Shown here piece after piece: positions 51,384 to 55,841 of a stretch of DNA of 64,000 bases. Below the pieces are notes generated by a model. It saw nothing but the letters and a program-made list of their open reading frames with translations, ran no database searches and was not told where the DNA came from. Position numbers and translations under genes: made by a program. This DNA comes from a virus, in the IMG/VR virus record IMGVR_UViG_3300036834_000231, positions 1 through 64,000 of that record; one strand, given 5' to 3'. How positions within the stretch are numbered: position 1 is the first letter of the stretch; each line of letters begins with the position of its first letter.

Positions 51384-51647
51384 CTATGCGCGTTGCGTTT
51401 TTGCCTTACTGCACTTGTGCGCGCGCATTTCACGCGCACTCAGCTCCAGCCCGCACTTAGGGCAGAGTCTTATCACTCGCGGTCGACCGCCCTGCGCACT
51501 GTCGCACTTGTGTGCGCGCATCTCACGCGCACTCAGTTCCAGCCCGCACTTAGGGCAGGGTCTTATCACGCGCGGTCGACCGCCGCCGTAGGTCTTACGC
51601 AGGGCGTTAAGCGCCCTCCCGAGAGCGGACTTCGCTGCGCGATTCAT
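51384..51647 (-). CDS. small basic protein with duplicated GGRPR + CPKC..HKC unit
   Basis: Tandem ~93-bp duplication. Confidence 0.65.
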   Translation of the reverse strand: MNRAAKSALGRALNALRKTYGGGRPRVIRPCPKCGLELSAREMRAHKCDSAQGGRPRVIRLCPKCGLELSAREMRAHKCSKAKTQRA

Positions 51648-51992: not shown

Positions 51993-52523
51993 TCATTGTG
52001 CTGTTTCCTCCTCTATTCCTGTCGAATCCTCAGGCGCATTCAGATCTACTCCGAGTGCACCTAACTGCTCAATCACGTCGGCTTCGAACGCCGAGAACGC
52101 GAGCGCGCTCCAGTTGATGGCTCCATCGCTAACGGCGCCGTCACTGCCAAAGTCCTCGAGATACTGCCCATCGTGCTCGGAATAGAGCAAGCATTCTTGC
52201 GCCTGCGCGGTGTAGATGACGCGTTGTGAGCCGTCTATCGTCTCGCGAATGTGCTCTATGAGCCACTCGCGCAGGGTTTCGCCTCGTTCGCCGTCTTTGA
52301 TCCGGCGCGACAGTTCGTCTTTGATAGAGTCCGCAATGCTCCGCACGTCGGACCAGTAATCCGCGCGCGCCAATTGCTTGCCGAAGTCGGCGGGATCAGT
52401 TTTGATCCGTACGTAATCGTTCGCGTCCGTCGAGTGCAGAAACGTCGCTATTACTTCGCCGTCGAGTGTGACGGTTGTCAGTTCGCCCGAGGCTTTCGGC
52501 CAAACGGTCTCATATTTCGCCAT
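51993..52523 (-). CDS. acidic protein, possibly Ocr-like DNA mimic
   Basis: LIEHIRETIDG..VIY pattern reminiscent of Ocr IH..AD..V..Y; strongly acidic C-terminal half. Confidence 0.45.
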   Translation of the reverse strand: MAKYETVWPKASGELTTVTLDGEVIATFLHSTDANDYVRIKTDPADFGKQLARADYWSDVRSIADSIKDELSRRIKDGERGETLREWLIEHIRETIDGSQRVIYTAQAQECLLYSEHDGQYLEDFGSDGAVSDGAINWSALAFSAFEADVIEQLGALGVDLNAPEDSTGIEEETAQ

Positions 52524-52537
52524 AAGTTAAAATTCAT

Positions 52538-52605
52538 CCTCCCTACACGGGCAGCCCATCAGCCGACCGTGTTTCGTCGCCATTCGCGGTACTCGTCAGG
52601 AGAGG
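52538..52605 (-). ncRNA. hammerhead ribozyme (type I topology)
   Basis: Minus strand CCUCUC-CUGACGA-GU..AC-GAAA-CACGG..CCGUG-U-A-GGGAGG: full core, stems I-III, GUA cleavage triplet. Confidence 0.85.
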
Positions 52606-53048
52606 TCCTCCGTGCGAAATTGTTTTGCCTCCTCCTCTTCTGGCCGTAGTTCGTCGGCTAACTCCGCACGGACCACACGTTTGTAATTTCCGTCAGCGTT
52701 GACAATGCCCCAGAGACCAGCCCGTTCGCTCGTCTTACGAACCTCTCCGTCTTCATCCGGTAACCAGGCGATAATGCCGATTCGCTCTTTGATTTCGGAT
52801 GGTTCGATATCGCCATCCGCGCAATCGTCTGCGTCTGGCCGTTCTTCGAACTCCACCCCGTTTTCGGCCGCCCATGTCTCGGCGGCCGCCAGTTCGATTG
52901 CACAGCGTGTGCGCCCTTCGATCGAGGTCTCCGTTTTCGGGTCATAGGACCATCCAGCGTGCTCGAAGAAAAATGCCTGCTGGGTAGTCAGAGCTTGAGT
53001 AGGCTGCTCTTGCTTCGGCTGTTTGGTTTTAGGTTTAGGTTTAGTCAT
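52596..53048 (-). CDS. hypothetical early-region protein flanked by hammerheads
   Basis: FFFEHAGWSYDP..E..GR.RCA..LA.AE..GLWGI motif; its stop TGA lies inside the ribozyme CUGA. Confidence 0.65.
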   Translation of the reverse strand: MTKPKPKTKQPKQEQPTQALTTQQAFFFEHAGWSYDPKTETSIEGRTRCAIELAAAETWAAENGVEFEERPDADDCADGDIEPSEIKERIGIIAWLPDEDGEVRKTSERAGLWGIVNADGNYKRVVRAELADELRPEEEEAKQFRTEDLS

Positions 53049-53055
53049 AGGTTTC

Positions 53056-53123
53056 ATCCCGACTAGTGCGCCGAGCATGCGCGCGCTAGTTTCGTCCGAA
53101 TTCCACGGAGCTCGTCAGGGGAT
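53056..53123 (-). ncRNA. hammerhead ribozyme (type I topology)
   Basis: Minus strand AUCCC-CUGACGA-G(C)UCCG..CGGAC-GAAA-CUAG..CUAG-U-C-GGGAU: full core, GUC cleavage triplet. Confidence 0.88.
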
Positions 53124-53563
53124 TAGACTGCATCGGCGAACGGAAACACCTGCCCTTCTAGCGCTTTGCGCCCGTCTAATCCCGCGAAATACACCTTGCC
53201 ATTAGGCCAAACACGTACGCATGAGTCGCTCAATTCTGCTCCGCTAAGATCAGGATGAACGGAACGCCACTCGTCAAACGATCGGTACAGTTTGCCCTGG
53301 TACAGATGTGCGAAAACGAGCGTGCGTTCAAGTAGCGAATAGTGCGATCCGATGACACCTTCGCGATATCCCGATACGCGATGATGTACCCACGCTGGAC
53401 TCGTCCGATACCAAGGCGCATCCCATACGCGCGCCAGTGCAGTATCTAGCTCGGTATTCGTCTGCTGAAAGTGCAGACAGCTATCCAGCGAATCATTAAC
53501 GAGCGACTTAGCGCGCCGCTCATGCTCTAACGCTGCCTTAAAGTGCCGCGATGTTTTACTCAT
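53123..53563 (-). CDS. hypothetical early-region protein
   Basis: GGAGG RBS; stop codon abuts the hammerhead. Confidence 0.55.
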   Translation of the reverse strand: MSKTSRHFKAALEHERRAKSLVNDSLDSCLHFQQTNTELDTALARVWDAPWYRTSPAWVHHRVSGYREGVIGSHYSLLERTLVFAHLYQGKLYRSFDEWRSVHPDLSGAELSDSCVRVWPNGKVYFAGLDGRKALEGQVFPFADAV

Positions 53564-53792
53564 GCGTGTGTTCCTCCCGAGTCCAGGGCCCATAGTTCCT
53601 TCGGCCACCATTCGATTCTGTTTCGCGCGTTGCGCCACAGGCGCAGGTATCCACGTACGTCACATTGCCGTGGGCGCATTGCCGCGCTGGATTGTGCGAG
53701 CACTCCGCCGGCGTTACACAGTGCAGCCATGCCCGCACTGTGCTCTTAGCCTGTACAGCCTTATGCGTGTGCGGGCGCCGTCTCGGTGTCAT
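53556..53792 (-). CDS. small His/Cys-rich phage protein
   Basis: AHGNVTYVDTCACGATRETESNG..YGPW. Confidence 0.55.
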   Translation of the reverse strand: MTPRRRPHTHKAVQAKSTVRAWLHCVTPAECSHNPARQCAHGNVTYVDTCACGATRETESNGGRRNYGPWTREEHTHE

Positions 53793-54139
53793 AGAATCAC
53801 CGCTGCTAACGCCATGCAATGGACTTGCTCCAAGCGATCCTTAACGAACTGTTCGATCCAGCGCTTGCCTGCATCGAATGTCGTAAACTCACGGGGTCCG
53901 GGCGCATCGGCAATCTGCCGCAACTGCCATGACAACGAGGCTTCATAGCGCGTTCCACGAAAACCGTAGGCGGCCTTGACTTGACCCAATGGAAACGGGT
54001 TTCCCGTGTTACCCGCTACAGGCAGATAGACAAGCGAGACCCAATAGGGTTCGCCCTTGACGTCTGTATGAATGGTGTTCCAGTAAACCCGAGCTTCGAT
54101 AAACTCTCGACTCAGTGGTGACAGTGTGGTTTCCGACAT
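53789..54139 (-). CDS. hypothetical early-region protein
   Basis: Tight operon spacing. Confidence 0.5.
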   Translation of the reverse strand: MSETTLSPLSREFIEARVYWNTIHTDVKGEPYWVSLVYLPVAGNTGNPFPLGQVKAAYGFRGTRYEASLSWQLRQIADAPGPREFTTFDAGKRWIEQFVKDRLEQVHCMALAAVIL

Positions 54140-54142
54140 GGC

Positions 54143-54691
54143 CTATGCGCCCCCCGTTTCCGGCAACACTTCAACGTCGTCCGCTACCCGCCATACCCGG
54201 TACGGCGCCCGATCGTCGTCGAACCACTCATGGCCCAACGCATAGCACTTGACTCCGACTTCTGGATCGAGTGGTGAATTCAGGCTGCATGCGCCGGGTA
54301 CACACGGACTACAGAATGCAGCATAGGTATAGAACGGACTACCGAGCACGAAGATATCGCTATCTAGACAATCCTTTAGTTCGTATCCGTGCTGCTCGTA
54401 AGACCAGCCAATGGGGTCATCCCCATAGACCGAGTCGGACCAATAGCACTTTTGACACTTTGTGCACGCGAAGTCCTTACCGTCATTCCATTCTTCGTCT
54501 GTTACGCTTTCATCGTCAGACGAGACCACTTCGCCATGTCCCGCGGGACACTGCGCGGGACCATAATTGTATTCAAAATCATCAGTCGATTCTGCTCGTA
54601 CCGCATGTTGCGAGATAACGCCATAGCGTATCCCAGTTTTCACGTCGATATTCGATTTACCTAAACCGTAGTCAATGCCCGCACTTCCCAT
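54143..54691 (-). CDS. acidic Cys-rich phage protein
   Basis: GIDYG.G..NID..TGIRYGVI..SPFYT...FCSPCVPGA; GGAGG RBS. Confidence 0.65.
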   Translation of the reverse strand: MGSAGIDYGLGKSNIDVKTGIRYGVISQHAVRAESTDDFEYNYGPAQCPAGHGEVVSSDDESVTDEEWNDGKDFACTKCQKCYWSDSVYGDDPIGWSYEQHGYELKDCLDSDIFVLGSPFYTYAAFCSPCVPGACSLNSPLDPEVGVKCYALGHEWFDDDRAPYRVWRVADDVEVLPETGGA

Positions 54692-54715
54692 AGTTCCTCC
54701 CTTTGTCCCTATCTC

Positions 54716-54784
54716 TTTGCCGATTGATAGGCCAGACTCCGCTTGCTCGCTCGCGAGCGGAGTCTAGTCCGTCTATCGGGCAAT
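54716..54784 (-). ncRNA. intergenic structured RNA motif, copy 1 (unknown class)
   Basis: UAGACGGACUAGACUCCGCU..AGCGGAGUCUGGCCUAUCAAU long hairpin; conserved in copy 2. Confidence 0.6.
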
Positions 54785-55117
54785 CTACCTTTCCTTCCGT
54801 TCCTCGGCTTCTAACTCGGTTTGAGTCAACGTCTCGACAATGCGCCCTTTGAAGTTCCCTACCACAAACAGCAGTACAGGTACCCCTGGTTCGCCGGCCT
54901 TAGTCACACTGGCGTTATTACCGTCCAAACATCGGCAGTATTTGAGTGCATACGCTTTAGCATCCTCAATCGATCCGTGAAACGTGAATGCCCCAGTCGG
55001 TTTCCAGCGCGCGTTCCAGGCTAGTACACAATAGCTTGCGTCACCTTGAGTCGCTTTCGCCACTGCCTTTAGGAACGCGTTTGCCTTACGAGTTCCGTAT
55101 GTCATGTTGTTAGTCAT
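54785..55117 (-). CDS. hypothetical early-region protein flanked by the repeated hairpin
   Basis: Start MTNNM after a purine-rich leader. Confidence 0.5.
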   Translation of the reverse strand: MTNNMTYGTRKANAFLKAVAKATQGDASYCVLAWNARWKPTGAFTFHGSIEDAKAYALKYCRCLDGNNASVTKAGEPGVPVLLFVVGNFKGRIVETLTQTELEAEERKER

Positions 55118-55143
55118 AGTCTTATCCCTTAATCCGTCCTTTT

Positions 55144-55211
55144 TTGCTGAATTGATAGGCCATACTCCGCTTGCCACTAGCAAGCGGAGTCTAGTCCGTC
55201 TATTAAGCAGC
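55144..55211 (-). ncRNA. intergenic structured RNA motif, copy 2
   Basis: Same core with a different apical loop and different but still complementary outer stems. Confidence 0.6.
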
Positions 55212-55841
55212 CCTATGCGTCCGTGGGCGATTCTCCCGAAGGAATCGCGCTAGCGCCGGCCGCCTACAACGATCCACTGCGTAGCGAACCATGGAATGGT
55301 TTTCCGTGCTAATTTCACCAGACGGAATGAGCGACTCAAACCATTCCCGCACTGTATCTTGGTCGATATCCCGCATAGCATCGGTAGTGTCGTACGAGAG
55401 CTTAAACTTATCCCGCAAGGTACTAATGAAGTCATGGCACTCATACTCAGACCAGCCCTTGAGGTAGGCTTCATACTCGCGCTCGCTGAAATCCGTTTCG
55501 TCTAGGACGGCGCAACCATGGCGCAAGGTATGGTACGTTTGCTCGGCTATTTCTACCCGCGCAGTATCGAGCGGAGAAATGATGATAATCTCGTACCAGC
55601 CTGGTCCCCAATGCCCAAAGCGATGTACCTCAACTGTGTCGCTTTCTCCGCCGAGACTAGAGAGCATTGCAGCGAAATTGCTTTCCTCTAGGCAGTCACT
55701 GTCCCGCGTTTGCGTTACGGGCGCTACTAGCCAGTTCTGTTGCTCGTCTAAAGCTAAACCGGGAACGTCAAACTGAGTCGGCGCATATGCGCCATATGTG
55801 CTCAATACACTGTCCATTGTTGTCTCCATTTCGGTAGTCAT
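55203..55841 (-). CDS. conserved acidic phage protein
   Basis: TRDSD.LEESNF..LGGESDTV..HRFGHWGPGW.E..VLDE.D.S.RE. Confidence 0.65.
   Translation of the reverse strand: MTTEMETTMDSVLSTYGAYAPTQFDVPGLALDEQQNWLVAPVTQTRDSDCLEESNFAAMLSSLGGESDTVEVHRFGHWGPGWYEIIIISPLDTARVEIAEQTYHTLRHGCAVLDETDFSEREYEAYLKGWSEYECHDFISTLRDKFKLSYDTTDAMRDIDQDTVREWFESLIPSGEISTENHSMVRYAVDRCRRPALARFLRENRPRTHRAA

Follow-up and report, generated by a model that had tools for sequence, protein, structure and literature searches.

A hairpin present in two copies brackets a single small gene of a soil phage, in gaps between cistrons where related phages carry self-cleaving twister ribozymes or hairpins of other sequence. The two copies have kept their pairing and a near-invariant core. 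The hairpin could well be a processing or stability signal of a long message, with a protein RNase, RNase III for instance, as the cutting enzyme; this is the reading that we favour, and we put it forward tentatively.

The hairpin pair and its gene neighbourhood

The window analysed here covers the opening 64 kb of an IMG/VR phage record that is 96,282 bp long and originates from soil. A run of small genes on the minus strand has a single reading direction, and two gaps of this run hold the hairpin copies (54716-54784 and 55144-55211), which are imperfect, about 67 nt long each, and lie on the coding strand. The features of this part of the window are as follows.

~52540-52603, minus strand: hammerhead-like element, CUGANGA/GAAA/NUH core recognised by eye
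~53056-53123, minus strand: hammerhead-like element, CUGANGA/GAAA/NUH core recognised by eye
54143..54691, minus strand: g182, the downstream gene, of a large phage Cys-rich zinc-ribbon family (634 hits)
54692..54715, minus strand: A-rich spacer with the Shine-Dalgarno sequence AAGGGA after copy 1, partly alignable with the spacer after copy 2
54716..54784, minus strand: hairpin copy 1, conserved core 54723-54775
54785..55117, minus strand: g110, 110 aa, between the two hairpins; a near-ORFan with a GC content like that of its neighbours
55118..55143, minus strand: A-rich spacer with the Shine-Dalgarno sequence AAGGGA after copy 2
55144..55211, minus strand: hairpin copy 2, conserved core 55151-55202
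55203..55841, minus strand: g212, the upstream gene, with 7 relatives in IMG/VR

The window contains two occurrences of each conserved half of the hairpin and no more, both on the minus strand and against a chance expectation of 0, which bears out the description in an earlier note on this DNA of two intergenic copies flanking one gene. BLAST, pattern search and covariance model R1, which was built from the two copies, all failed to find a third copy in the 96,282 bp of the record.

Both copies are placed in their gaps in the same manner. Copy 1 begins 1 nt past the TAG stop of g110 (54787-54785), and 24 nt separate its end from the ATG of g182 (54691); the stop codon of g212 (TAA, 55205-55203) lies inside the 5' outer stem of copy 2, which ends 26 nt before the ATG of g110 (55117). 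The common geometry is a stop codon at or in the 5' base of the hairpin, then 24-26 nt from its end to the next ATG, with AAGGGA as the Shine-Dalgarno sequence. As far as gene layout goes, the genes lie on the same strand, the gaps are short, and there is no promoter or terminator consensus around the hairpins; a scan found neither a sigma-70 promoter nor a U-tract terminator at either of them.

The gene between the hairpins has only three distant relatives among 1.8 billion representatives, none of them in viral contigs, and it shows no Pfam match and no paralogy with the neighbouring genes. The predicted structure of g182 is confident (AlphaFold pLDDT 89), and searches of it with Foldseek and VIA-align gave no convincing PDB fold match beyond the zinc ribbon. 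The record also carries a dead-Cas12f mini-array, which has k-mers in common with the hairpins at chance level, none of them inside the array itself.

The earlier note had compared the hairpins with hammerheads in the same operon. The latter elements have a type-I core when read by eye (CUGACGA, GAAA and GUC/GUA) and fold as three-way junctions. The Rfam hammerhead models do not score either element, even at E <= 10, and neither RF00163 nor RF02684 has a match across the whole record; we regard both elements as unconfirmed hammerheads.

The fold and its pattern of conservation

Either copy folds as one long interrupted hairpin, at -37.8 kcal/mol for copy 1 (z = -4.3) and -31.5 kcal/mol for copy 2 (z = -3.9), and for each copy 0 of 200 shuffled sequences were equally stable. 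The plus strand folds slightly better than the minus strand (-40.8 and -32.4 kcal/mol for copies 1 and 2), and the counts of wobble and A.C mismatches are equal between the strands, two of each. The sequence thus carries no signal as to which strand is the active one, or whether it acts as RNA or as single-stranded DNA.

We aligned the copies by hand with their outer stems in register. In this alignment, 25 pairs are common to both copies, two outer pairs are changed on both sides and remain paired (G-C to A-U and C-G to U-A), and one pair is broken in copy 2 (G-C to G.A). The outer-stem compensations proposed earlier, GAU/AUC against AAU/AUU and UUGCC/GGCAA against UGCU/AGCA, are real in the alignment of the copies. 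The lower half is interrupted by five stacked non-canonical positions (A.A, C.A, G.U, A.C and U.G), which together with the 25 standard or wobble pairs give about 30 layers of irregular helix, and all irregularities of the hairpin are 1x1 mismatches or one bulge. The conserved basal junction, for which the earlier note had offered an AGAC/AUCA internal loop, is therefore better seen as a continuous irregular helix with single stacked non-canonical pairs.

The core differs between the copies at 1 of its 42 positions, whereas the outer stem and apex together differ at 10 of 24, a very uneven distribution (Fisher p = 8e-5), and the apical loop tolerates three substitutions and a 1-nt indel. This pattern of kept pairing, variable loop and near-invariant core would, on the evidence of the two sequences, fit a folded single strand better than a double-stranded operator, and the indel between the arms argues against a double-stranded operator for a dimer. 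A coding reading of the plus strand was rejected; the loop indel places the open reading frames across the two copies mutually out of frame, and the conservation is therefore not protein-coding.

Searches for homologs of the hairpin

The hairpins have no match in Rfam 15, either at the gathering score or at E <= 10, in the window as a whole or in a permissive scan of 52450-55300. The covariance models for hammerhead, twister, twister-sister, pistol, hatchet, HDV-like, hairpin and glmS ribozymes all fail to match, which agrees with the earlier remark that the element has no known ribozyme core. On architecture, too, the known ribozyme classes were rejected, as the hairpin has no multi-helix junction or pseudoknot around a conserved unpaired core.

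Searches of sequence collections gave a similar result. A 14-mer scan of viral contigs returned chance matches only, among the matches listed, and a 17-mer had one match there, by chance. A 19-mer had none in genome contigs. A gapped 21-base pattern was found in no viral contig, in no genome contig and in one metagenome contig, where it is a chance match inside a coding region. The genomes of 185,579 species contain 0 copies by the hairpin pattern or the 19-mer, blastn against phages and plasmids returned chance fragments only, and model R1 had no match in any of 59 related loci or across the full length of four related phage records. As no homolog was found, the covariation rests on two sequences and two compensatory pairs. 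On homologs with covariation, whose absence the earlier note had set against its motif, the outcome is accordingly divided: no homolog was found, and two pairs carry double changes within the copies themselves. The other finding that it had set against the motif, membership of a known terminator or REP class, did not emerge, there being no such match, no U-tract and no copy in the species' genomes.

The lack of copies in genome, phage and plasmid collections makes a host REP-like family unlikely, and REP or BIME repeats were rejected on the same genome search, the one metagenome match being a chance one in a coding region. Several other classes of element were set aside. An intrinsic terminator was rejected, as the sequence after the hairpins is A-rich and the scan found no terminator-like site. 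Integron attC sites were rejected in view of the lack of RYYYAAC and GTTRRRY cores and of a tyrosine recombinase in the 96-kb record, and end hairpins of IS200/IS605 elements (PATE-like) were rejected because the record has no Y1 (HUH) transposase (PF01797). There is no RNase III gene in the record either. A PeSL cassette was rejected, as neither copy has a sigma-70 promoter-like site.

The same junction in related phages

The g212 and g182 families adjoin in several related phages, in either order. The content of the junction differs by lineage, so that one and the same slot holds twisters, a covarying hairpin family or an orphan hairpin.

In the relative L128, the gap that separates the homologs of g182 and g212 is taken up by a type-P5 twister (RF02684), which scores 46.6 bits where the gathering threshold is 37.6. 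In L127, a close relative of L128, the twister module occurs twice and flanks an inserted ORF of about 99 aa, which is the layout of the hairpin pair in the window; the inserted ORF is unrelated to g110. The two twister copies in L127 have a conserved frame and covarying stems, with a crossover in the conserved 3' segment. L127 exceeds L128 by two small ORFs at the g182/g212 junction, of which one is bounded by the duplicated twisters and the other by an 8-9-nt direct repeat. The layout of two copies around an inserted ORFan arose at least twice. The loci of L127 and L128 contain three to four twisters per 6.6 kb (RF02684, 42-48 bits), all of which lie in the stretch from a stop codon to the following ribosome-binding site.

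L127, 1033-1095: type-P5 twister, RF02684
L127, 2527-2597: type-P5 twister, RF02684
L127, 2915-2987: type-P5 twister, RF02684
L127, 6290-6354: type-P5 twister, RF02684
L128, 96-159: type-P5 twister, RF02684
L128, 1784-1846: type-P5 twister, RF02684
L128, 2917-2987: type-P5 twister, RF02684

The slots of the window's hairpins are equivalent to the ribozyme slots of these relatives, and in L127 and L128 hairpins and ribozymes coexist in one operon. The earlier suggestion of a RAGATH-type motif is upheld by this context, in which homologs of the flanking genes adjoin bona fide type-P5 twisters, and the assignment of the hairpin as a RAGATH-type element by context is supported.

A different long hairpin is found in L173 and L175, with the stop codon of the g212 homolog in its 5' base and its end 20 nt before the g182 homolog; this is the arrangement of the window without g110. 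The L173 hairpin (L173:2407-2459) belongs to a family with six to eight copies per phage in four related records (G006-G009). In this family, which was collected from L200-L211 as alignment A7 and modelled as R2, all copies lie on the gene strand and within a few kilobases. The loop UGCG is invariant, as are the segments GA..G and UCGUGU, and a run of G.U wobbles pairs on the sense strand only. Of the alignment cells, 93.8% are paired, and 11 of 21 pairs are changed on both sides. The covariation score is 0.554 against 0.25 for shuffled alignments (0 of 500 reach 0.554), and slid controls stay at or below 0.13. The family has no Rfam match, and model R2 has no match in the record that contains the window. 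We consider the family a candidate for an uncatalogued RNA motif in ribozyme-type slots.

In the relatives, g212 homologs are commonly followed, and g182 homologs commonly preceded, by intercistronic hairpins of unrelated sequence; relative to other genes, the upstream side of g182 homologs shows no overall enrichment of strong hairpins (Mann-Whitney p = 0.41). A 61-nt interrupted hairpin starts from the stop codon of the g212 homolog in both L127 and L128 (L127:3634-3697 and L128:3634-3697), in an operon whose other gaps hold twisters.

What the hairpin may do

The early polycistronic mRNA of phage T7 carries RNase III processing signals, R0.3 to R1.3, between its cistrons. The window's hairpins are like these signals in being paralogous, imperfect long hairpins between the cistrons of one operon, with a helix of more than two turns and with mismatches or loops in the stem, and the expected outcome is likewise a set of monocistronic messages with a 3' hairpin. 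They differ in that they have no sequence similarity to the T7 signals, carry single wobble-type mismatches in place of an asymmetric internal loop, and are more strictly conserved in their core; cleavage here is only predicted.

The idealised RNase III substrate is 22 bp, or two turns, and a mismatched target site is cut in one strand only, which leaves 3' ends that are stabilising (PMC3867540). The helix of the hairpin is longer than 22 bp, mismatched and, by gene layout, intercistronic. The length and the mismatches are both compatible with a substrate of RNase III type, and we therefore favour a signal for processing or stability that acts through a protein. The hairpins would act as cis-acting stem-loops of a polycistronic minus-strand message, filling the gaps between stop codon and ribosome-binding site. 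A nuclease specific for double strands, most simply the RNase III of the host, would cut in the mismatch-rich lower half, giving an upstream message with a protective 3' hairpin and a downstream message with a short leader, and the net effect would equal that of the twisters in the same slot of related phages. Conservation of the 42-nt core, mismatches included, exceeds what RNase III is known to need, and this hints at a more specific partner. The ORFan g110 may have been inserted into an ancestral g212-hairpin-g182 junction via the conserved module, an event that would have duplicated the hairpin, and the repeat probably also served as a recombination or homology patch for this insertion. 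Against the favoured reading, the lower stem competes in longer context with pairing to the purine-rich sequence downstream.

Since the hairpin is a single irregular helix without junction or pseudoknot, its self-cleavage is unlikely, and the new self-cleaving motif that the earlier note had inferred receives no support. A new minimal ribozyme that takes the place of a twister or hammerhead would have some precedent in the slot itself, which holds type-P5 twisters in relatives and hammerhead-like elements in the same operon, and in the logic of gene association, which yielded the pistol, hatchet and twister-sister ribozymes (PMC6765202); the unusual A.C and G.U pairs of the conserved core also speak for it. 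However, the hairpin also lacks a sizeable conserved loop and matches no Rfam ribozyme model at E <= 10, other RNA structures from the same approach failed to cleave in tests (PMC6765202), and even the 'hammerheads' of this operon are without Rfam confirmation, so that we regard such a ribozyme as very improbable. Rather less remote, though still unlikely, is that a dedicated cutting activity, interchangeable with twisters and hammerheads, recognises the core rich in wobble and A.C pairs, be that activity an unrecognised phage endoribonuclease or a minimal self-cleaving fold.

The remaining alternatives place the function elsewhere than in cutting. The repeat may have served chiefly at the DNA level, as a recombination or cassette boundary (a homology patch or a single-stranded DNA hairpin site, like PeSL or attC) with any RNA role secondary. 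We think this a minority possibility, to which several observations lend weight: the two direct copies enclose a single near-ORFan; in relatives, members of the g212 and g182 families adjoin with no g110 between them; the ORFan insertions of L127/L128 have duplicated junction modules as their borders, and the crossovers fall within the conserved segment; the two strands are equally good at folding; and PeSL repeats likewise lie on either side of ORFans and have been documented as recombining (PMC2839356). The record, however, encodes neither a tyrosine recombinase nor a Y1 transposase, the copies have no attC-type core sites and no promoter, and plain use of homology leaves the compensatory changes and the freely varying loop unexplained. 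Of the sequencing runs, only the probable source, a soil metagenome, contains this stretch of DNA, and no RNA run is listed with it. The contigs of that metagenome show no deletion joint between the copies, a result of little weight since rare variants are lost from contigs. A somewhat more doubtful alternative is that a specific RNA-binding protein, of phage or host, binds here, the hairpin being a translational operator or coupling device in which termination at the upstream stop codon would melt the lower stem and the 3' arm would re-pair downstream, altering access to the ribosome-binding site. The strict conservation of the core, mismatches included, and the stop codon at or in the 5' base would suit such a device. 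So would a competing fold open to both hairpins, in which the 3' lower arm joins with a purine-rich stretch further downstream (minus strand, 54692-54740 and 55118-55170): for copy 1 in longer context the alternative pairing is already the minimum-energy fold, and for copy 2, when the 5' lower arm is blocked, the re-paired 3' arm reaches the first bases of the Shine-Dalgarno sequence. Yet the Shine-Dalgarno sequence of copy 1 stays free, the downstream partner differs between the copies in sequence, register and distance, and purine-rich leaders pair easily by chance with pyrimidine-rich arms; the alternative pairing may thus be due to chance, its partner being unconserved. No candidate protein was found, and g182 is without a known fold. 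Improbable, finally, is a passive role without specific recognition, as a 3' stabiliser, a weak terminator or the neutral leftover of a local duplication. The unrelated hairpins that are common at these positions in relatives would be in keeping with it, but there is no U-tract, and loop and outer stem have diverged far more than the 42-nt core (p = 8e-5), a contrast within one repeat that argues against neutrality.

Comparison with phage ribozymes and stem-loop cassettes

Hammerhead clusters flanking single genes in prophages were described in 2011, and processing of long messages was proposed as their role (Perreault et al., PMC3088659). The window's hairpins share with such clustered phage and prophage ribozymes the slot between stop codon and ribosome-binding site and the bracketing of one small gene by two copies, and with the twisters of L127 and L128 also the g182/g212 neighbourhood and a conserved frame with covarying stems. 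Unlike these ribozymes, the hairpin has no ribozyme core, junction, pseudoknot or Rfam match, and its cutting would need a protein. The RAGATH approach (Weinberg et al. 2015) looked for RNAs near ribozyme-associated genes and, according to PMC6765202, yielded pistol, hatchet and twister-sister along with other structures that did not cleave in tests. The hairpin is comparable as a structured intergenic RNA candidate defined by context, through genes that elsewhere accompany twisters or hammerheads. It differs in that the RAGATH structures are covarying families of many members, whereas here there are two copies in one genome and no matching Rfam entry. The PeSL cassettes of T4-type phages combine a strong early promoter of sigma-70 type with terminator action (Arbiol et al. 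2010, PMC2839356). They are similar as repeated intergenic stem-loop modules that flank ORFans, and through which recombination inserts or removes genes; the window's hairpins differ in having no promoter and no U-tract.

The purpose of self-cleaving ribozymes between small genes in bacteria and phages is still unknown (PMC6765202). The two-copy hairpin alone is a modest find, real and constrained, with no relatives found in the collections searched. Across lineages, one syntenic junction holds three unrelated elements, namely twisters, covarying multi-copy hairpins and an orphan hairpin pair, and this suggests that the slot needs a defined RNA boundary and not a particular catalyst. The junction variants form a matched natural set in which the idea of an RNA boundary can be tested. 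Should a dedicated cutting activity recognise the core, then, together with the family in G006-G009, it would mean a free exchange, at one and the same junction of phage genomes, between ribozymes and signals that depend on a protein, and it would point to defined message ends between small genes as the purpose of twisters and hammerheads in bacteria and phages.

The minus-strand gene run of the window holds one further repeat, a tandem pair of 81-nt elements (51411-51491 and 51504-51584) that are 94% identical and 93 nt apart.
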